From: Candidatus Babeliales bacterium
GTDB taxonomy: Bacteria; Babelota; Babeliae; Babelales; JANWKD01
DNA: 64,000 nucleotides
Assembly (NCBI GenBank): GCA_963701665.1
Contig: OY969622.1
Coordinates: 672,001 to 736,000 of the forward strand
Direction: 5' to 3'
Numbering within the stretch: position 1 is the stretch's first letter; every line of letters begins with the position of its first letter. The position numbers and the translations under genes are program-made. The notes beneath the pieces are model-generated. The model was not told where the DNA came from. It was given only the letters and a program-made list of their open reading frames with translations, and ran no database searches. Below are positions 17,556 to 56,746 of this stretch, in pieces.

Positions 17556-20500
17556 ATGAAACTGTTTTCAAGATCGTTGAGTGCCATACTATTTATGTCA
17601 TTACTATGGGTAGTACCATATATTTTCATACAACATAGTTACGCAATGGAAGCTGTAATAATAGAAGAAGGCATTAGTAGGTTGGGACTAGGACTTGAAG
17701 AAACTGCAGCAAGGGGGATGGCTGAAGCTGCAGAAGAAGCATTTGGAAGAGTTACTGGTGCCGAGTTAGAATCTGCAGGTGCAGGTATTAGAGGAGCGTT
17801 GGATACAAGTCTTGAAAAAGGACTAGCTAATCTTAAAGAAGAGATTGGGGCACTGAAAGCTGCTGGTAAAGAATTGACGCCGGAAAACTTGAAAAGTGCA
17901 GCGGCTAAAGCATTCGGCGATCAAAAATCCGTTTTTAGCAAAGATGTTGAGGGTATTTTCAAAGAACAAGGTGGATTTAGTCCTGCTGACAAAGCAGCGC
18001 TTAAAAGTGTTTTGCCTGAAAGTGCTTTTAGAGGCGAACCTATTCCTAATGTTTTAGCTCAAGGAAAAGTGCTTTCTGTCGACATAAAAACATTACCAGC
18101 AGTAGATCAGGCTACAAGCAAAAGTCTAGTTGCTTTTGATGAGGTTGAAGCTTCCGGTAAAAACTTGGAAGCTTTAAAAGAAGGTGGCGGAACAGAAGCG
18201 GAAATAAAGGGTGCCGAGGGTGAACTAAAAACTGCAAAAAGTGATTTAGCAACAGATCAACAAGCCAGAGCTACTCAAAGTGATACAGAAGTTAGTGCAG
18301 CCCAAAAAAAAGTTAACGCAGCGCAAGAAAAATTTGATAAAGCTACAACGATAGAAGGAAAAAGGGCGGCAGGTGAAGAATTATCGCAAGCGAAGAATGA
18401 GTTAAATGAAGCGGGCAAAGTAAAAGCTGCCGATAATAATGTAACCTACAAGCAGAAATGGCAAGAAGCAAGAAATGAGCGCATGGATAAACTTAGTGCA
18501 AATAAGCAGGCAGAGAAAGAATTAGGGGATGCTAAAACTGCTCGAAAAGCCCTTGATAACGATCCTAATGCGACGGCTGAACAAAAAGCTGCTGCGGATA
18601 AAACTGTTACTGAAAAGCAAGGTGCGGCTGAAAAAGCCGGAAAAGAATTAAAAGCCGCTGATGAGGCAGTCGTTAAACAAGAAAATGAGTTGATGGAAAA
18701 CTCTAGTATGTGGGGCGATCCCCGTAAAGGGCCCTTAGTTAACCGGGAGCACATAGAAATCACAGGTTCACGTATGGGGCGAAGTTCATGGGATGCATTA
18801 ACGGGTACTCCAAAATGGATTGGTTCAAAATTATGGGGCGGTATTACTGGCGCCATTGATCAAATGCTTATTGCCCTGTGGTTCACCGTGCCAAATATGG
18901 TAATCGAGGCATATAACACGGCTCAGGCAAAGAAAAAATTATTAGAGACGCAAAAAAAATATCAACAATGGGGTGGCATGTGGCTGAAAATTCCTGATTT
19001 CTTTATCAATGAAAATGAGCCTGCGAATTCTCTCCATATTTATGTCGGTGTCCCTAATGACGGCTTTCCAATCACTGAAGAGTTTTTAAAAACTGCAAAT
19101 TATTTTGTCGTGAAATCGGATTATGCGCCATGGGGCAGTTCATCTATCTTTGATAGTGTTTCTGCTATGGTGCATTTAAATACGGGTTATGTTTTTGTCA
19201 GTGATGGGCAACCTGCTGATCCAGATGAACCTACTATGCCTTTTGGAGAAATGGCAAAAGATCAAGCAGGCTTAATTGGACATCTAGATGATTTATCAGG
19301 AAAGGCAGGTACAGGGTTAAAAACTGAAGGTGTTCAATACTATGTTGATAGTTATGAAGCAGGATATAAAGGCAGTCATCTTGTTGCTACATTATTCAAA
19401 TCGAAGGGGGAGCCAGGGTCTGAACAAGAGCTAACACTTGAAATGATGCCACCGATTCTTGTGCCAACCTTTAATGCCTTAAAAGGTGGTACCAATTTTG
19501 GTACTGATAATGCAGGAAAGCCGCTGTATTTAGTCGAAGCTTTTAAAGGGTTCAATAAATCCGATCAAGATAACGGTAAGCAACTTATGGAAGCGCTTAC
19601 CGGAGCGCCACTTGATGATCCTTCTAATGAAGCTGCAGATGATGATAATTATGTTTTGCAAGGTGTGTATATTTATCAGACAAAAGATACACCCATTGTT
19701 GATCTGGTCAAAAAACAAATTTCAGCCAATGATCCGCAAGGGCAAATGCTCCGTGACGCTGTTACTGATTATGTGGTAATGCTTAATAGAGATAATAAGG
19801 TTGTGCCGCTTATGACGCCGCAGCCGATGGTGTTGCCTCCCGGTTCAAAAGATTCTGCTTTTGTACATTATGCGCTTAATCCAAGAGCCGATAAAATGAA
19901 AAGTTTAATTGATGGCGGTAGTAAAGCATATGATGCACATGGTAGCACTGAAGATGCGTCTATTCCAGATAAGCTTTCTGCTCCTGAAAGAATTGCTACT
20001 CAAATTAAAGCAATGCAAACATTCTTTGATACAAAAATTAAATATGGGCCGTTTACCTTTGGTGGTACAACGCTTACTATTGATAAACCTCTCGCTGACG
20101 CAAATGTTTTTGTATATAAAGCTGCTGGATTCTTGGAAGGTGGTTTTGATGATTATTTGATTGCTGTTGAAGCAGTAAAAGATGAAAAAACCGGAAAAAC
20201 AGTATTGGCAGTTACTTCTTTACCATCTAATGGGATTGCATGGTTTGTTAGTTTAGTTACTTCACGGTTCTACGATAAAAATTTACAACCATTTGCGCCA
20301 CCAATTGCACCAGAAAAAGATTATTACATTACGAAAGATAACACAGTTGCTACGGGCAAACCATCTGATGGTTCATTACCACAAGCACAAGCACCACTTT
20401 ATACTTTATTTGTGCAAGGTGAATATAATCCAAGTCCTAAACCAGCAGGCTATATTAATAAAGCTAATAAAAGTTGTAGTACATGTTTACCTATTGGTGC

Positions 20501-35984: not shown

Positions 35985-36305
35985 ATGAAATTGTTTTTTC
36001 GAGTAGTTCTTTTACTTGGTTCTTTTTCATTAAGGGGAATGTCGAATGAAGCAACTATTGAACGATTGATGTCACCAAGCGGCACTTGTGTAGCGTATTG
36101 TGGCAAAATCGATTCAAAAAAAACTTATATACAAAAAGTTCAGGAAGGTGCCAACGAGCGTTTTGTGGGTTATATAGAAGCTAGCGATGGTACAAGAAAT
36201 ATTTATCGTAACAACATGAGAACAAAAGAACTATGGCATACGTTCGATTCTCTTTATGAAATATTACATCACATTGACTTGCTAGATCGTACATTAAAGA
36301 AGTAG
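35985..36305 (+). CDS. Small exported protein, paralog family member 2
   Basis: Start ATG 35985, MKLFFRVVLLLGSFSLRG-M; DNA homologous to the 35657 start region. Confidence 0.75.
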   Translation: MKLFFRVVLLLGSFSLRGMSNEATIERLMSPSGTCVAYCGKIDSKKTYIQKVQEGANERFVGYIEASDGTRNIYRNNMRTKELWHTFDSLYEILHHIDLLDRTLKK

Positions 36306-36333
36306 GGTGGTTATCAAATTAAAAGGAGTATAA

Positions 36334-36693
36334 ATGAAGTTTTTAAAGGGGATTGTCATTGCGATGTTGATGTCAGCTGAACTATCTGCAATGGACAGCA
36401 ACCAATGCGGAACGATAGGAAAAAATCCTGATCGGGGTGATGGTGTTGTAACGTATAATAGAATAACTATGTTAGGCAAAAGGATTGTCGTCTCGCGTAA
36501 AGAAAAAGATGGGGAAGAATATTTTGGAGGATATTCAAATAATATTTTTGGAGGGCGGACTGAACCATTATCTTATAATCGTGCTAAAACAAAATGGTAT
36601 AAATTGCGTGATGAATGTGAAGGATTGATCAAAATGAATGAGGATGTCAAAAATCTCATGAAAAATTCACGAAGCAATGCTCAAGAAAAATAA
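36334..36693 (+). CDS. Small exported protein, paralog family member 3
   Basis: AAGGAG RBS; signal peptide ending LSA-M. Confidence 0.75.
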   Translation: MKFLKGIVIAMLMSAELSAMDSNQCGTIGKNPDRGDGVVTYNRITMLGKRIVVSRKEKDGEEYFGGYSNNIFGGRTEPLSYNRAKTKWYKLRDECEGLIKMNEDVKNLMKNSRSNAQEK

Positions 36694-48635: not shown

Positions 48636-48980
48636 ATGAAAATAGTGATTTTTGTAAGTATTTTTTTAGTGATAACTGTTAGAGCAATGGATAAAGAGGG
48701 AGAAATCCTTTTTTATAGAAAGTTTAATGGAACTGAAAAAGTTAGAAAATTTAAGCAGTCAACCGAAGGCAAGCGATACATAGTTTCAAGAATAGAAGAT
48801 GCGTCTACGAAAAAAGTGATATGGAAAGGTAAAGTGGTTAACGAGGTGTCACCATTTAAAAAAACTCCAAAGCCAATGTTACTTGAAGCATCTAGCGCAA
48901 AAGAGAAATACGATAAATTATTCCTGGAATTCAAAGAAACAGTATTAATACCTGCACAGATCTTAGAATATTACCAATAA
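48636..48980 (+). CDS. Small exported protein, distant member of the 35657 family
   Basis: AAGGAG RBS; signal peptide ending VRA-M. Confidence 0.7.
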   Translation: MKIVIFVSIFLVITVRAMDKEGEILFYRKFNGTEKVRKFKQSTEGKRYIVSRIEDASTKKVIWKGKVVNEVSPFKKTPKPMLLEASSAKEKYDKLFLEFKETVLIPAQILEYYQ

Positions 48981-50683: not shown

Positions 50684-50834
50684 GAACGTACCTCCTCAAG
50701 AAACTGCCCGCATTCATCATACAAATAGCACATCACTAGACACAAGATTCGCGTGGGAATCGCAATTTTATTGCGCGCTGTAATTTCTATTTGTTAATAT
50801 TTGTATGAAGTTCAAGAGAGGTGAAAGGAGTTAT

Positions 50835-51494
50835 ATGATAAAGAGACCATTGTTAAGTACTTTGCTAGCGTTAGTGATACTGCCCCAATGTTACAATGTA
50901 CCATCATCATTGAAAGAGGAAATCAATGAATTGTATGGGGCTATTTCAGGATTTGGCATATCCAATGAAGATACTAATCTCATAGAATCACATGGATGTG
51001 CTTCCACCTACGGCGAGATTACCTTTGAAGGCGTTGAAACGCTGCTTAAACTCCTCAAATTAAAAGATACCGACGTTTTTTATGATTTGGGGTGTGGCGT
51101 AGGCAAGATGGTTGTTCAAGTATATTTAGATTCGCCCGTAAAAAAGAGCGCTGGCATAGAACTTTCTAGCGAACGTGCCGAAAGTGCCCTCAAGATCAAA
51201 CAGCAATTACAGGTAGATAATAAGATAAAAGCGGGAAGAACCTTAGTGTTTTATAAAGAAAGCTTCTTGGATGTAGACTTATCGGATGCAACCGTTATCT
51301 ACTTAGCCTCAACGTGCTTTTCCGATGATATTATGAAAAAAGTTACCGATAGACTAGCAACACTCAAAAAAGGACTGCGCGTTGCAACGCTCAAAAAATT
51401 GGCTGAAAATGATAAATTTGCCTTGCTTGATCAGTTTATTTTACCAATGACCTGGTCTGATAGTACCCCCGTCTACCTCTATGAATTACAGTAA
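50835..51494 (+). CDS. DOT1-like class I SAM methyltransferase with signal peptide
   Basis: Start 50835 after GAAAGGAG; YGEIT, DVFYDLGCGVGK, GIELS..R, ATVIY. Confidence 0.8.
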   Translation: MIKRPLLSTLLALVILPQCYNVPSSLKEEINELYGAISGFGISNEDTNLIESHGCASTYGEITFEGVETLLKLLKLKDTDVFYDLGCGVGKMVVQVYLDSPVKKSAGIELSSERAESALKIKQQLQVDNKIKAGRTLVFYKESFLDVDLSDATVIYLASTCFSDDIMKKVTDRLATLKKGLRVATLKKLAENDKFALLDQFILPMTWSDSTPVYLYELQ

Positions 51495-51585
51495 AAAAAA
51501 ACCACCGCATTGATCGAAATCAATGCGGTGGAAAAAAGGAGAGTAGTAATGAAGCCTAATTAAAATCAGTATAATTGTTACTGAT
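51493..51585 (-). ncRNA. Candidate ~93-nt sRNA with anti-SD/anti-AUG segment
   Basis: TTGACA-16-CATACT promoter; 5' hairpin; cuucauuacuacucuccuu; 13-bp hairpin with UUCG loop and U9. Confidence 0.6.
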
Positions 51586-51745
51586 GGTTAAAGTATGAAG
51601 TTTATTATAATAATGTCAAATTTTATAGAAAAAAAACTATGTTATTATTGCTATAAAAACTTTACTTATTACTAGTAGGTTATAGTCTTTTTTATTACCT
51701 GTCAATAGGCCACAAAATGAAAAGTATCACCAGGAGCCAAACATT

Positions 51746-52819
51746 TCACATTGTCAATTTTATATGCTGCGTATCACGCGATAGGAGAAATTCTTCAAAG
51801 GCACCGTCTGTCGATGGAGAGGTAAAAAACAGTTGATTGTTCATTGTTTGTAATATGCCAAGGAGAATTTTACTGCGGATGGGATCAAAATCTGTCATAA
51901 AATCGTCGAGTAAAAAAATCGCAGAACCTTTATGAGCAAGAATAAGTTTCATCTGCGCTATTTTTAGCAATATAAGAATCAATTTTTGTTGCCCGCGCGA
52001 GGCAAATGATCGCGATGTTTTATGACAAAATTCAATAGCAATGTCATCTAAATGAATACCAAAAAGTGATCTTTTAAACCGTTGCTCTTGCAAAAAAAGA
52101 TCGTTATGCCCCTGCATAAATTGGTCAAACGTATCATAAAGATTTTTTTTGGGTTGGTAGGTCAAACGAATCGTAATTGTATCATCAAACCATGTATGGA
52201 GCAATTCATTAGTTTGGCATTGTAATTGATGCAAAAAAATAGTTCGTTGTTCTTGAATGCGTTTTGAATATTCCCATACTTGCTGAGTCCACAAGGTAAA
52301 CATATCCCGATGATGATACCCTTTTAAGATAAGTGCGTTGCGATTATCTAAAACATGTCTATATTTTTTCAACTCGGTAAGATATTCAGGAAATGCTAGT
52401 GCCACTGCTTGATCAATGAATAATCTTCTTTGTTCTGGTCCGCCTTTTATAATATAAAGATCATCTTCGGTAATGGTAATAATACGGTATTGTTGTGCAA
52501 GATCTTTATACGAGGTAATAACTTTTTCATCGATTTTAACGAGTCGCTTTGTTCCCGAGCAGCCAACATGCAGTGTGTATGGCACTAAATCTTGATCGAT
52601 AGCCATTTTAATAAAAAAATTTGTTGCATCAAACTGTATCAGTTCGCGCGGCAGATGGGTACGAAACGAGCGCAGATAACACGCGTAATGGATCGCTTCT
52701 AATAATGATGATTTACCAGATCCATTTTGACCAGTCACCAGAACGAGTGGCTTTTCAATAGTAAACGAGCTGTCTTGAAAGCAGCGAAAATTTTTGAGAA
52801 CTATATGATATATGCGCAC
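51746..52819 (-). CDS. recF: DNA repair protein RecF
   Basis: KNFRCF, GQNGSGKSSLLEAI, GGPEQRR, SRGQQK, LLDD. Confidence 0.95.
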   Translation of the reverse strand: MRIYHIVLKNFRCFQDSSFTIEKPLVLVTGQNGSGKSSLLEAIHYACYLRSFRTHLPRELIQFDATNFFIKMAIDQDLVPYTLHVGCSGTKRLVKIDEKVITSYKDLAQQYRIITITEDDLYIIKGGPEQRRLFIDQAVALAFPEYLTELKKYRHVLDNRNALILKGYHHRDMFTLWTQQVWEYSKRIQEQRTIFLHQLQCQTNELLHTWFDDTITIRLTYQPKKNLYDTFDQFMQGHNDLFLQEQRFKRSLFGIHLDDIAIEFCHKTSRSFASRGQQKLILILLKIAQMKLILAHKGSAIFLLDDFMTDFDPIRSKILLGILQTMNNQLFFTSPSTDGAFEEFLLSRDTQHIKLTM

Positions 52820-52838
52820 AATACTACTGCAACAATTA

Positions 52839-53960
52839 TTAGGTCGTCGTTGGGGAAACGGGCATGACCAAATAGGTCATCGTATAAGAATCGTGCACTG
52901 CTTCAAAAATAATAGGCTTTGAAGAGCTCTTTAAATAAAATTTGATTTGTGCATCTGAAAATGCTTGCAACCCATTTAATAAATAGGGCGCATAAAAGCG
53001 AATGTCCAACGCAGAACCTAAAAAGCCGTGGAGGGGCAAACTTTCTTGCAATTTACCAACTTCCTTATTTTGCATGGCAACTTCAAGAAGTTCTTTATCA
53101 AAAGCAAATTTAGTTGCTAAAAACTGTCCTGATAATAAACAGGCTGAACGGCGCAATGTTTTAATAAAATGGGAGCGATCAACAACAGCAGGCGTAAACT
53201 CATTTTTCTGCAAAATAGCTTGATAATGGGGAAATTGATCAACAAGTAACTTGGTAAAAAAGTTAAATGATTCACCAGAAAAAACAAGCTGATTGCCACA
53301 AATGCCAACAAAAATCATTTTTGTCGTATTATTTTCAAGCACTTTTTTAATTTCAAAAATAGCTCGGCGTGGGAGTAACCATTTTTTTTCTTCATGTAAG
53401 GTAACTGTTGCTGTATGCACTTGTGCAAGACAATGACCATCGGTAGTTGTCATAGTTAAACCTTGTGGCGAAATTTCTAATAAGAGCCCATTGAGTGCCG
53501 GGTTAGCATTATTTTGTGGAATTAAAAAAGCAACTTTTTCAAGCATATCAACAAAGAACTGTGCATCTAAATGCATAAGATTTTCGATGCGCTCAGGAAA
53601 TGGTGGAAATGTTTCTGCATCTTTAATATGTAATGAAAGTTGCACCTGGCCTGATTGTAAAGAAAGCTGGTTATCTTCGAAGGTAAATACAATTTGATCG
53701 TACAGTTCTTTTACAAGATCAAAAATACGTTTGCCTGATACTAAAAATGATTGCGAATCATCAATATCACTGCTCTCAAGCATACAGTTTGATTGTAAAC
53801 TTATTTCTAAATCAGTTGATTTAAGAATTAATTCTCGATGGCCTATTTGGAACAATATTGATGCAGTCGTATCAAGGGTAGTTCGCTTTGTGCAAATTGG
53901 TTGCATAGAAGAAAGCATCCCCAGCATCGTTTTTTGATCAATAGTAAACGTATGAGCCAT
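52839..53960 (-). CDS. dnaN: DNA polymerase III beta clamp
   Basis: STDLEI, LNGLL, TTDGH, FP.Y, YLVMP; adjacent to recF. Confidence 0.95.
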   Translation of the reverse strand: MAHTFTIDQKTMLGMLSSMQPICTKRTTLDTTASILFQIGHRELILKSTDLEISLQSNCMLESSDIDDSQSFLVSGKRIFDLVKELYDQIVFTFEDNQLSLQSGQVQLSLHIKDAETFPPFPERIENLMHLDAQFFVDMLEKVAFLIPQNNANPALNGLLLEISPQGLTMTTTDGHCLAQVHTATVTLHEEKKWLLPRRAIFEIKKVLENNTTKMIFVGICGNQLVFSGESFNFFTKLLVDQFPHYQAILQKNEFTPAVVDRSHFIKTLRRSACLLSGQFLATKFAFDKELLEVAMQNKEVGKLQESLPLHGFLGSALDIRFYAPYLLNGLQAFSDAQIKFYLKSSSKPIIFEAVHDSYTMTYLVMPVSPTTT

Positions 53961-54062: not shown

Positions 54063-55067
54063 TCAAGAAACGGTGACATTAAAGGCGCGCAATATACCCA
54101 AAATTTCTTTCACACCAATACCAGCTTTATGTACTAATAAATATGACGGAACTATGGTAGGAGCAAACTTTTGCCAATATTGTTTTCGTTTATAAAGTTT
54201 CAGTATTTTTTTCGTAAGATTAAAACAGTATGGAGCGAGAAATGTTGCGCATCTTCCTAATCCTTCGATCGTGCGCAATTGCGCAACAGGTAGCGTACCA
54301 AAAGAAAAATAATTGCATCCTTCCGCGCGTAACACGGCGAGCGTTTGTAACAATATATATTCAGATGTGTATTTTGGCGCATCGGGTGCATAAAAGAGTG
54401 CGTTTATCGTCCATCCGTTAAAGATATCAAGTCTATTTAAAATAAGGGCACCAATAAAATTATCATTATTTTTCACATAAAAAAATCGCTTATTAGCGCG
54501 ATGAGAAAAAATATTAACATTCATCAGTGATGTTTGAGGGCCTTTGCGTTCTTGCAACCAACTTTGGCCTAACGCTTCCATGGAATGTTCAAGTTGATTA
54601 TCAATGCCACGATACTCGTGAAATTGTAGATTATGTTTTTGGAGAATGCTTGCGATATTGCGCAAAGAAGAAGCATGCTTGCCACGCAAAGAAAGTGGGT
54701 CAACTTGGGGATTAACAATAATCTCATCGCCCATACTCAATGCCGTTTTTATGTAACCGTGCTCAGATGCCCACTTTTTAAAATGGTCAGAAGCTAATAA
54801 ATACATAATACTTTTTTTCTGAGCAAGGAAATGAGCATGAAATTTTGCTACCAATAAAGGCATATTGTGCGGATCACAAAGAGGGTCACCAAAAACCAAT
54901 ACACAACCAGCTTCATCTTTATAGCCCATAATACCATCAATACCAGGAGCCTGGAAAATTTTCATGGTACTATCAAAAATAGCTATTGAGGGCGCTCTGC
55001 CCCATTTCTGTATGTAAGGTAAGACGAGGTGTTCTTCTTGCAGTGTAGCAAAGGTATTTTGATTCAT
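54063..55067 (-). CDS. Stand-alone MprF C-terminal-like (DUF2156) aminoacyltransferase
   Basis: LVFGDPLC, LRG...LRN, W..KFAP; no flippase TM domain. Confidence 0.8.
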   Translation of the reverse strand: MNQNTFATLQEEHLVLPYIQKWGRAPSIAIFDSTMKIFQAPGIDGIMGYKDEAGCVLVFGDPLCDPHNMPLLVAKFHAHFLAQKKSIMYLLASDHFKKWASEHGYIKTALSMGDEIIVNPQVDPLSLRGKHASSLRNIASILQKHNLQFHEYRGIDNQLEHSMEALGQSWLQERKGPQTSLMNVNIFSHRANKRFFYVKNNDNFIGALILNRLDIFNGWTINALFYAPDAPKYTSEYILLQTLAVLRAEGCNYFSFGTLPVAQLRTIEGLGRCATFLAPYCFNLTKKILKLYKRKQYWQKFAPTIVPSYLLVHKAGIGVKEILGILRAFNVTVS

Positions 55068-55312
55068 TAAAGCCCCCAATTTTATTCCATATTAGTATAC
55101 CAAAGAGGATAAAAAAAGATAGGGGACAAAAAATAGCTTTTACCTAAATTCCCTGATATTCTGAGTACATAAAAACCTTCTTATTTTTCTTTAAAGACTA
55201 TGAAAATCAATACTATATTCTTAACCTCTCCTCATTATATTCCCGCATAGGGTATAAATTTACTATTTTTCACTAGAGATGAGTTACTTGGTTAAAGAAT
55301 TAAAGGATTTTC

Positions 55313-56746
55313 ATGTATATTCAATTTATCATTTCATTTGCCGTTTATCTGACTATTGTTTTAGCAATAGGCCTTGTTGCTGCACGCGCTGCTGCTAGCA
55401 AAAATAAACACTCGCCTGACTTTTTATTGGGTGGACGCTCGACTCACTGGTTTTTAACCGCGCTTTCAGCGCACGCTGCTGACATGAGCGATTGGCTTTT
55501 TATGGGGTTACCTGCCGCAATATATCTTCAAGGCGGTTATCAAATATGGATTCCTATCGGATTATTAGTAGGTATGTTTTGCGTGTGGCACTTTATTGCA
55601 AAGCGATTACGCATTTCCTCAGCCTACTATCGAGGCGTCACTCTCGCTTCCTATTTTCAAGAACGATTTAACGATAGATCAGGTATTATAATTGTCATAT
55701 GTGCCTTAATTTCATGTTTCTTTTTTTCTATCTATCTTTCCGTAGGATTAAAAGGAATTGGGTATGTATTAAAATCAGCATTTAACCTTGATTATCATCT
55801 TGGTACGTTGTTTGCTGTGCTGGTTGTTTTGACGTATACCGTTCTAGGTGGGTTTATCTCCGTTGCATGGATTGATCTCTTTCAAGGAATTTTTTTATTA
55901 ATAATGCTTATGATTGTACCTATTGTCGGTTTTTTTTCTGTAGGCGGCTTTTCAGCAATTTTCAATGCTGCACAGCAAAAAGCGATTTCATTATCCCTTA
56001 TTCCTGATTTTTCATTGCATACAATGCTCTCAATTCTTTTGAACCCTTTTGCATGGTGTCTGGGCTATTTTGGCATGCCGCATGTATTAACAAAGTTCAT
56101 GGGCACTGAAAATGCAGAGGATCTTCATAAAGCAAAATATGTTGGCATAACATGGCAACTATTAGCAACATCCGCTGCTGTAGGTGTCGGGTTAGTTGGT
56201 ATCGCATATTTTATGCAGGGCGTACCTGGCAAACCAGAATTCATTTTCATTGAAATGACAAAGCAGTTATTTAATCCATGGTTTGCTGGCATTGTATTGT
56301 GCGCAATTTTGGCAGCAACTATTTCTACCGTGGATTCACAACTTTTAGTACTCGCCAGCATTATTGCCCACGATTTTTATAAAAATATTTTTTGCAAACG
56401 CGCGACTCAAAAACAGGTTATGTGGGTCTACCGCGCGTCATTAATTGTTACCGCGTGTATAGGCTATGCAATCGCGTGGGATGAACATAGCACCATCATG
56501 TCATTAGTGAAATATGCCTGGTCTGGCCTTGGCGCCTCGTTCGGACCCCTTATGATTCTTTCACTCTATTCAACGAGTATTAATAAATACGGTGCCATTG
56601 CAGGCATTCTTGCAGGCGCTTTTGTGGCTGCAACATGGGATTTGATAAATCCTTATGTTACGAGCATGCCTGTTTACTCAATCGTTCCAGGGTTTATTAT
56701 AGGTCTCATAACTATTTATACCGTGTCATTGGCAACAAAAGAGTAA
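55313..56746 (+). CDS. putP: Sodium:proline symporter
   Basis: FLLGGR, ALSAHAADMS.WLFMGLP, LGYFGMPH, AA.ISTVDSQLL, AWSGLGASFGP. Confidence 0.92.
   Translation: MYIQFIISFAVYLTIVLAIGLVAARAAASKNKHSPDFLLGGRSTHWFLTALSAHAADMSDWLFMGLPAAIYLQGGYQIWIPIGLLVGMFCVWHFIAKRLRISSAYYRGVTLASYFQERFNDRSGIIIVICALISCFFFSIYLSVGLKGIGYVLKSAFNLDYHLGTLFAVLVVLTYTVLGGFISVAWIDLFQGIFLLIMLMIVPIVGFFSVGGFSAIFNAAQQKAISLSLIPDFSLHTMLSILLNPFAWCLGYFGMPHVLTKFMGTENAEDLHKAKYVGITWQLLATSAAVGVGLVGIAYFMQGVPGKPEFIFIEMTKQLFNPWFAGIVLCAILAATISTVDSQLLVLASIIAHDFYKNIFCKRATQKQVMWVYRASLIVTACIGYAIAWDEHSTIMSLVKYAWSGLGASFGPLMILSLYSTSINKYGAIAGILAGAFVAATWDLINPYVTSMPVYSIVPGFIIGLITIYTVSLATKE

Follow-up and report, generated by a model that had tools for sequence, protein, structure and literature searches.

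A 64,000-nucleotide (nt) stretch of the genome of a Candidatus Babeliales bacterium (GenBank assembly GCA_963701665.1, contig OY969622.1, positions 672,001 to 736,000), hereafter the window, carries a small RNA (sRNA) gene on its minus strand between positions 51493 and 51619. On the evidence of sequence comparison, the gene is almost certainly real and represents a new family, a stand-alone gene placed downstream of recF throughout Dependentiae. Dependentiae (TM6) is a phylum of obligate intracellular bacteria that live in protists; it is widespread, and almost none of its members have been cultured. The features expected of a trans-acting sRNA were found in the form of an invariant, mostly unpaired seed with above-chance complementarity to translation start regions. 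The RNA probably functions by chaperone-independent antisense occlusion of start regions, with lineage-specific targets that would mostly be messenger RNAs (mRNAs) of exported or secretion proteins. The window genome (G000; 1.34 Mb in a single contig, 93.6% complete) was analyzed together with a complete genome from another family (G116), which served as the second genome for full comparison.

Anatomy and conservation of the sRNA gene

A previous sequence-only reading of the window had described a promoter, a +1 A, a 7-bp hairpin, an unpaired stretch, a 13-bp UUCG hairpin, and a run of nine U residues (U9) at this site, and all of these were present on the minus strand where it had placed them. 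The sigma-70-type promoter (51592 to 51619) consists of a -35 TTGACA (51619 to 51614), a 16-nt spacer, and a -10 CATACT (51597 to 51592), with a scan score of 10/12. The predicted +1 is the A at 51585, seven bases past the -10, the exact 5' end being a prediction. In the predicted fold, the RNA opens with a stem-loop, AUCAGUA-ACAAUUA-UACUGAU (51565 to 51585), in which 51585 to 51579 pairs with 51571 to 51565. This is followed by a single-stranded seed, UUUAAUU-AGGCUUCAUUACUACUCUCC-UUUUUU (51532 to 51564), which is unpaired in the minimum free energy (MFE) fold, and by an intrinsic terminator (51493 to 51531) with a 13-bp stem (51531 to 51519 with 51514 to 51502), a UUCG loop, and U9 (51501 to 51493). 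The terminator letters are CCACCGCAUUGAU-UUCG-AUCAAUGCGGUGG, then U9. The unpaired segment after the 5' hairpin reads UUUAAUUAGGCUUCAUUACUACUCUCCUUUUUU; the seed includes the stretch CAUUACUAC and has no G between GGC and the terminator. The predicted RNA is 93 nt long in the window genome (in relatives, the median length is about 108 nt), and the 93-nt form folds into two hairpins separated by the unpaired middle (MFE, -26.8 kcal/mol; z = -6.6; 0/200 shuffles as good).

A local consensus scan of the window did not rise above chance, either for promoter-like sites (6, compared to 7.6 expected from shuffles) or for terminator-like sites (2, compared to 1.2 expected). The feature was therefore judged to be real because it is conserved among relatives and not because of the local scan. 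Conservation was followed in 41 relatives by BLAST, in the GTDB set of one genome per species with a 19-mer, in 121 genomes of the order with a 14-mer, and in 151 genomes of the phylum with a covariance model. BLAST searches with the recF-distal intergenic region gave matches in 35 of the 41 relatives, solely over 51566 to 51493 and at 77 to 100% identity. The exact 19-mer GGCTTCATTACTACTCTCC was found in at least 119 stretches of the GTDB contigs (about 160 estimated), and the full architecture was present in all of those listed but one. The exception, a Patescibacteria record (L074), has neither the terminator nor the context; this match looks like chance and was discarded. The taxon labels were mostly Dependentiae, TM6, or Babeliales, and many read just "uncultured bacterium" or "uncultured Pseudomonadota," which we took as mislabels. 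The 14-mer GGAGNGTAGTAATG occurred in 104 of the 121 genomes of the order, compared to 3 matches for a reversed control. The covariance model (R1), built from 121 distinct copies, matched at an E value of ≤0.001 in 148 of the 151 phylum genomes sampled, which belong to a single order. Conservation of the segment complementary to the Shine-Dalgarno sequence (SD), which had been looked for in relatives, was thus found. The three genomes without a match belong to families f8 and f16, in which a divergent relative of the sRNA keeps just (G/A)CUCCUUUCUCCUUUU (the CUCC-UUU-CUCC-U part) and the terminator.

Among the 121 distinct copies, AGGCUUCAUUACUACUCUCC followed by U5-6 and C does not vary; by alignment column, this invariance covers A-GGCUUCAUUACUACUCUCC, U5, and C. 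Invariance of the 19-mer in this alignment follows from the way in which copies were selected, yet the flanking A, the U run, and the C were unselected and are also invariant, and the unselected BLAST and model searches agree with seed invariance. The invariance spans more than 26 nt across at least 19 families, and 82 of 116 folds left the 26-nt seed segment at least 80% unpaired. In the terminator stem, 99.4% of cells were paired across the 121 copies, with compensatory, two-sided changes at 12 of the 13 pairs; none of 500 shuffles reached this level of pairing, and slid controls were 24 to 53% paired. The 5' part varies in both sequence and length, and its hairpin is kept (mean MFE of -9.6 kcal/mol, compared to -4.7 kcal/mol for shuffles; z below -2 in 74 of 115 copies). 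Of 130 distinct copies, 116 have a TTGACx-16/17-xAxxxT site no more than 150 nt upstream, compared to 15 of 130 in the reverse-complement control. Moreover, all 39 of the 39 loci compared (from 36 distinct genomes) have recF as the immediate upstream neighbor on the same strand, at 130 to 357 nt from the seed. RecF identity to the G000 protein falls to 32 to 51% (71% within the genus) while the sRNA seed stays invariant.

Some genomes of families f7 and f12 carry two to four copies of the sRNA, partly in tandem, in which only the bases 5' of CUUCAUUACUACUCUCC vary. Extra copies, tandem or nearby, were located at G015:C10:13078-13424, G049:C1:114954-115210, G073:C4:62065-63061, and G030:C56:42817-43092, and in some of the extra copies the anti-SD is duplicated (CUCUCCUUUCUCCUUUUUU) and the bases immediately 5' of CUUCAU are altered. 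Tandem paralogues are typical of sRNA genes.

These data bear on the possibility that there is no independent RNA and that the hairpin ends the dnaN-recF transcript, with the conserved stretch serving as a 3' untranslated region, possibly processed. The element always follows recF on the same strand, and the window scan revealed no separate terminator-like site between recF and the element, both as this explanation would have it. Nevertheless, the promoter kept in 116 of 130 copies indicates a stand-alone RNA gene and not a mere dnaN-recF terminator, the alternative that the sequence-only reading had itself named; tandem copies have their own promoter-like site and terminator away from the recF stop; and a plain terminator needs no invariant 26-nt single strand. 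We therefore regard a 3' untranslated region as very unlikely.

The functional unit might instead lie on the plus strand, as a micro-open reading frame (ORF), MKPN*, with a perfect SD, or as a type I toxin whose antisense RNA is the element described here. The plus strand does read AAAAAAGGAGAGTAGTAATGAAGCCTAATTAA. However, the ORF is only 4 amino acids long here and varies in length and sequence elsewhere (MKPC*, MKPKLNL.., MKPMLNV..), so the micro-ORF raised earlier is not conserved among relatives; there is no conserved promoter on that strand (15/130); and the hairpin is followed there by A6 and not by a U tract, as the sequence-only reading had observed. No conserved small toxin ORF was found on the plus strand, and a type I toxin-antitoxin antisense RNA was rejected. 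A plus-strand unit thus appears to be already contradicted by the comparison and is scarcely credible. A promoter-like site and a Rho-independent terminator of its own, with no conserved ORF on either strand, predict a trans-acting sRNA; the earlier claim of a discrete minus-strand RNA gene gains support from the conserved promoter, the covarying terminator, and synteny, the transcript itself being predicted.

Complementarity of the seed to start regions

The sequence AAAAAAGGAGAGUAGUAAUGAAGCCU, to which the unpaired segment is exactly complementary, comprises an A-rich tract, an SD, a 7-nt spacer, AUG, and AAG; the seed can accordingly be read as anti-AAG, anti-AUG, anti-spacer, and anti-SD. 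The 16S rRNA 3' end of G000 is canonical (..CACCUCCUUUC), and CUCCUUU is common to the 16S tail and the seed. Start regions of G000 were enriched for AAAAGGAG(A) and (A)GUAAUGAAG(C) and were not enriched for the GCCUAAUUAA end.

Duplex energies were calculated for the start regions of both genomes and compared to those of shuffled seeds; the genome-wide duplex search used an ungapped prescreen, and the G000 counts rest on a crude gene set and on 25 shuffles of each kind. In G000, 36 of 1,109 start regions reached -20 kcal/mol or lower, compared to a mean of 7.5 (maximum, 18) for full shuffles and 15.8 (maximum, 31) for shuffles in which the anti-SD tail was kept. At -18 kcal/mol or lower, the real count was 88, with 21.9 (maximum, 44) for full shuffles and 40.6 (maximum, 76) for tail-keeping shuffles. 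Gene-internal windows yielded 2 sites at or below -20 kcal/mol, compared to 39 of 1,244 start regions. For G116, 11 of 944 start regions reached the -20 kcal/mol cutoff, compared to 3.4 (maximum, 10) and 3.4 (maximum, 7) for the two kinds of shuffle. At the -20 and -18 kcal/mol cutoffs, the seed beat every shuffle in both genomes.

Four start regions that the sequence-only reading had given as examples were scored as duplexes. Two of them held up as candidate targets, namely, aaaaggagtataaATGaag (36304 to 36351, plus strand, ATG at 36334; -21.0 kcal/mol) and aagggagtagttgtATGaaa (17526 to 17573, plus strand, ATG at 17556; -20.7 kcal/mol), both of which fall in about the best 3% of G000 start regions by pairing energy. 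The region at 1923 was moderate (-16.9 kcal/mol), and that at 48636 did not hold (-11.7 kcal/mol). The best non-self site in G000 (-31.6 kcal/mol) was the start of a 78-amino-acid signal-peptide ORF at about 146.85 kb (minus strand, ATG at 146852), another candidate target.

Exact matches to the 14-mer pointed in the same direction. Beyond one match per genome, there were 28 extra matches in the 121 genomes, and the reversed pattern gave 3 in total. Of these 28, 21 stood in the SD-spacer-ATG register of an ORF, 5 were extra sRNA copies, and 2 were unclassified. The register ORFs were at least 78 amino acids long or open for at least 101 codons to the end of the locus in 15 of the 21 cases, the other 6 being 6 to 21 amino acids long, and most of the 21 had signal-peptide-like N termini. 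Similarly, 27 of the 36 best G000 start regions passed a lenient signal-peptide heuristic, compared to 457 of 1,109 overall. The 21 exact register matches, mostly to signal-peptide ORFs, are in line with the earlier guess that the targets possibly include exported effectors; the weak side is that the bias is confounded by the Met-Lys (AUG-AAG) start that such genes share, which is one of the points weighed below.

Three of the register ORFs, found in as many f7 genera, encode orthologous versions of a single protein of about 570 amino acids that matches Pfam Secretin (the "short secretin"). The sequence G(G)GAG(A)GUAGUAAUGAAG is kept in 5 of 13 short-secretin orthologues (G111, G118, G060, G103, and G023; -29 to -40 kcal/mol), and in these the flanks and coding sequence diverge where it stays; the other orthologues are without it. 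Further short secretins in G049 (f12; -32.3 kcal/mol) and G051 (f14; -26.0 kcal/mol) also paired strongly, and the gene is an example of a candidate target in families f7, f12, f14, and f20. Two large tandem secretin genes (about 750 to 1,070 amino acids) were present in 61 of 61 genomes sampled across the order. The third, short secretin (about 450 to 640 amino acids) occurred in families f2, f4, f5, f7, f12, f14, f15, f18, and f20 and in one of four f3 genomes.

A further candidate lies outside the window, at G000:C1:1308757-1308933 (L225:558-734), where a 59-amino-acid CxxC..CxxC zinc-ribbon protein (MKCKKCSGLMVLQSFFDHF...) is encoded. This uncharacterized and unusually conserved protein is single copy in 118 of the 121 genomes of the order, at 59 to 100% identity, and scored above the cutoff for no Pfam or NCBIfam family; its gene is just upstream of one that is TsaB/TsaD-like. 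Good pairing of the start region was seen for 17 of 23 orthologues (mean, -21.9 kcal/mol), but most of the bases involved belong to AUGAAG and to a strong SD of a generic kind, and for this reason the gene was kept as a candidate only.

Other partners were considered and set aside. No single long perfect target was present in the genome, the gene's own antisense being the only site with three or fewer mismatches to the 19-mer. Pairing with rRNA gave just -24.6 and -24.7 kcal/mol at 16S and 23S sites, which lie in structured regions. The neighboring start regions (subtilase, DOT1-like, recF, dnaN, ruvC, and orf48636) were weak, at -7.7 to -16.7 kcal/mol.

Taken at face value, this complementarity suggests a simple course of events. 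The promoter would give rise to an RNA of about 93 nt that starts at the predicted +1 at 51585 and ends at the terminator. The invariant, unpaired, G-poor seed would then pair in vivo with start regions composed of an A-rich tract, GGAG, the spacer GUAGUA, AUG, and AAG, and such pairing would block binding of the 30S subunit and repress translation. The targets would be lineage specific, mostly mRNAs of signal-peptide proteins, and not one universal mRNA. Since Hfq (PF17209), CsrA (PF02599), and ProQ (PF04352) were not found in the 93.6% complete G000 genome, the long seed would act without those chaperones.

Element 2 and the constraint on the seed

Genome-wide scans of G000 and of G116 each revealed an intergenic site of one and the same type, referred to here as element 2. 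In G000, it lies outside the window at about C1:234983-235110 (loci L224, L239, and L263) and consists of a promoter-like CTTG(A/C)TTTTTT..TAGCAT followed, about 8 nt on, by AGCUAAGAAGGAAUUGUAGUAAUGAAGC, an SD-like stretch, spacer, and AUG-AAG. Within it, the 13-base stretch GUAGUAAUGAAGC is a perfect complement of the sRNA seed. The exact 14-mer occurred in 21 of 121 genomes, once each, compared to 1 control match; a purine-degenerate pattern occurred in 30 of 121, once each, compared to 2 control matches; and a sequence model reached an E value of ≤0.01 in 44 of 121, with full-length matches mainly in f1, f11, f13, f17, f19, and f21. In 28 of 30 loci, element 2 immediately follows an rluA-like gene (pseudouridine synthase). 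Its start codon opens an ORF of 4 to 90 amino acids (median, about 17; MKRPYFF* in G000), which is not conserved. Element 2 is probably a second small RNA gene, perhaps acting as a decoy or sponge, as a target, or in both ways. It is neither the transfer-messenger RNA (55331 to 55769) nor the signal recognition particle RNA (853591 to 853685), both of which lie elsewhere in the genome; 6S RNA was not found in G000.

It is conceivable that the conserved function of the sRNA resides in an RNA-RNA pair with element 2 (promoter plus AAGAAGGAAUUGUAGUAAUGAAGC) and that other mRNA matches are secondary. A 13- to 14-nt perfect complement in a separately conserved, syntenic element, present once per genome and followed by an unconserved ORF, is what such a pair would look like. 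The 30 loci also hold variants in the 13-nt complement (AUG to GUG, 5 loci; GUAGUA to GUGGUA, 2; AAG to GAG, 1; terminal C to G, 1), and 8 of the 9 variant loci carry A-to-G changes, which leave a G.U pair with the invariant sRNA and so fit pairing. But since GUG, too, is a start codon, the variants fit a real start region equally well. Moreover, element 2 was not found in f2, f5, and f14 and was found in only 1 of 10 genomes each in f6, f7, and f12, where the seed is equally invariant, and its structure is weakly supported, with the 13-mer 46% unpaired in MFE folds. Element 2 cannot alone explain the invariance of the seed, and we consider this pair unlikely to be the conserved function. As a separate observation, the families with a short secretin are largely those in which element 2 went unfound.

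The patchy distribution and weakly supported structure of element 2 also count against the occlusion of start regions as set out above, and they are not the only points to do so. Enrichment among start regions is modest, about 3- to 5-fold, and at -16 kcal/mol the count in G116 did not exceed that of the best shuffles (59 sites, compared to shuffle maxima of 60 to 62). The GGC/UUAAUU part of the seed is unaccounted for by start regions. A 13-nt exact complement is expected about once by chance per 1.3-Mb genome, by estimate, and therefore single-genome matches mean little. The confounding of the signal-peptide bias belongs here as well. Among 447 reciprocal-best pairs between G000 and G116, there was no convincing conserved orthologous target, and the energies of orthologous start regions correlated at r = 0.22. 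The short secretin was rejected as a universal target, since only 5 of 21 orthologues reached -20 kcal/mol. Finally, sRNAs with many targets are not usually invariant over 20 to 30 nt across a phylum. Thus, of the earlier proposal that the RNA pairs with the start regions of many mRNAs, the part that stood is an excess above shuffles in two genomes; the search gave no phylum-conserved target, and repression would be a predicted consequence of pairing. Seed invariance is not fully explained by start-region occlusion, and a further constraint, such as a protein or ribosome partner, may act on the seed.

In its strongest form, that idea would make a protein or the ribosome the main partner of a real sRNA, for instance, through titration of S1 or competition with 16S rRNA for the SD. 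The extent of the invariance, beyond that of usual multitarget seeds, would be in keeping with this, as would the lack of G between GGC and the terminator, the CUCCUUU that is also in the 16S 3' tail, the failure to find a universal mRNA target in the 447 pairs, and the retention of only the CUCC-UUU-CUCC-U part in f8 and f16. Nonetheless, the anti-AUG, anti-AAG, and spacer complements recur at real gene starts, which is unexpected for a protein platform, and there is no candidate protein, given that Hfq, CsrA, and ProQ were not found in G000. We attach a low probability to a protein or ribosome as the main partner, and occlusion of start regions remains the reading that we favor.

A bolder version of the latter would cast the sRNA as a phylum-wide, invariant master riboregulator of the starts of exported-protein and secretion-machinery genes (secretin, pseudopilin-like, and small secreted proteins), buffered by element 2 as a decoy. 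We offer this tentatively and consider it somewhat unlikely.

Relation to known sRNAs, genomic setting, and implications

When the whole window was searched against Rfam, as the sequence-only reading had suggested, no family reached its gathering score. At relaxed E values, only Ref84, VrrA, MicF, and GcvB were matched, all below threshold. The best match was to Ref84 of Enterococcus (RF02846), at 31.4 bits against a cutoff of 52 (E values, 0.047 and 0.024), and this was the sole family whose model was matched at full length (1 to 87), exactly over 51494 to 51586 on the minus strand. The two RNAs are alike in ..UACUCCUU-UUCCACCG..CGGUGGUUUUUUU, an anti-SD-like CU stretch running into the terminator. 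As described, Ref84 is a trans-encoded intergenic sRNA that is conserved family-wide but specific to Enterococcaceae, lies between two conserved hypothetical genes, and upregulates adhesins, its loss lowering the levels of cell-surface proteins; its architecture begins with a conserved, single-stranded 5' end, after which come two stem-loops and poly-U (PMC12642391). The window sRNA, in contrast, has a 5' stem-loop, a 33-nt single strand, and a terminator, so that the single strand does not come first as it does in Ref84, and the inner helix of the Ref84 model is unformed in the alignment. Context and taxon differ as well, the one RNA being downstream of recF in Dependentiae and the other between hypothetical genes in Enterococcaceae. 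Membership in Ref84 was therefore rejected on score, architecture, context, and taxon (PMC12642391), and the likeness is most simply explained by convergence. The regions of the zinc-ribbon gene, the 78-amino-acid ORF, and element 2 had no Rfam match.

Among sRNAs of obligate intracellular bacteria, IhtA of Chlamydia is described in two reports as lineage conserved and as an inhibitor of hctA translation (PMC3469542, PMC4355289). It is a functional analogue of the proposed Dependentiae sRNA, unrelated in sequence. The defined IhtA targets (hctA and ddbA) were tested experimentally, whereas those of the Dependentiae sRNA are predicted from sequence. In Firmicutes, the Listeria LhrC1-5 sRNAs and RsaE/RoxS pair with SD regions through unpaired C/U-rich motifs. 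The LhrC genes are in tandem and have surface and secreted protein mRNAs as targets, and the conservation of RsaE/RoxS is unusually broad. These sRNAs have short UCCC or CCCC motifs as seeds, often looped and repeated. Unlike these, the Dependentiae sRNA has one continuous seed of at least 26 nt that includes the spacer, AUG, and second codon and is invariant across the phylum, and it had no Rfam match to the LhrC or RsaE/RoxS families. A search of the full-text literature found no publication on small or regulatory RNAs of Dependentiae/TM6.

The gene directly upstream of the sRNA gene, on the same strand, is recF (51746 to 52819, minus strand; Pfam SMC_N/AAA_23), the syntenic anchor of the locus, which is flanked by dnaN (52839 to 53960, minus strand). 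The ORF upstream of dnaN (54063 to 55079, minus strand) encodes an LPG_synthase_C (DUF2156-type) protein, and dnaA was ruled out at this place. Convergent to the sRNA gene is a gene for a DOT1-like methyltransferase of 229 amino acids (50805 to 51494, plus strand; Pfam DOT1, E value of 3.9e-22), which lies between the sRNA gene and an S8 subtilase gene in the window's genus only (also in G001). Because it has a eukaryote-like domain in an intracellular bacterium, the DOT1-like protein is, from its sequence, an effector candidate. The gene downstream of the sRNA is not the same among relatives (S8 subtilase, ankyrin, WD40, RuvC/DnaB, and others). In G000, the cumulative GC skew peaks at about 731 kb, adjoining the dnaN-recF locus, and has its minimum at about 158 kb; gene-strand bias is weak (plus strand, 326/563 compared to 325/681). 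No DnaA-box cluster was found near the sRNA locus, and an origin-of-replication element was rejected.

Bacterial sRNAs usually turn over within families. Presence in 148 of 151 genomes at a fixed place, with at least 20 nt identical to the letter while RecF falls to about one-third identity, is exceptional for bacterial sRNAs. If the master-regulator version were true, the sRNA and element 2 would constitute a chaperone-free RNA-RNA switch gating an envelope and secretion program, for example, between replicative and transmissive stages. The sRNA also provides a ready marker for Dependentiae and an entry point to posttranscriptional control in a phylum apparently without Hfq, ProQ, and CsrA, as well as a natural case in which to ask why a seed stays frozen while its targets change.

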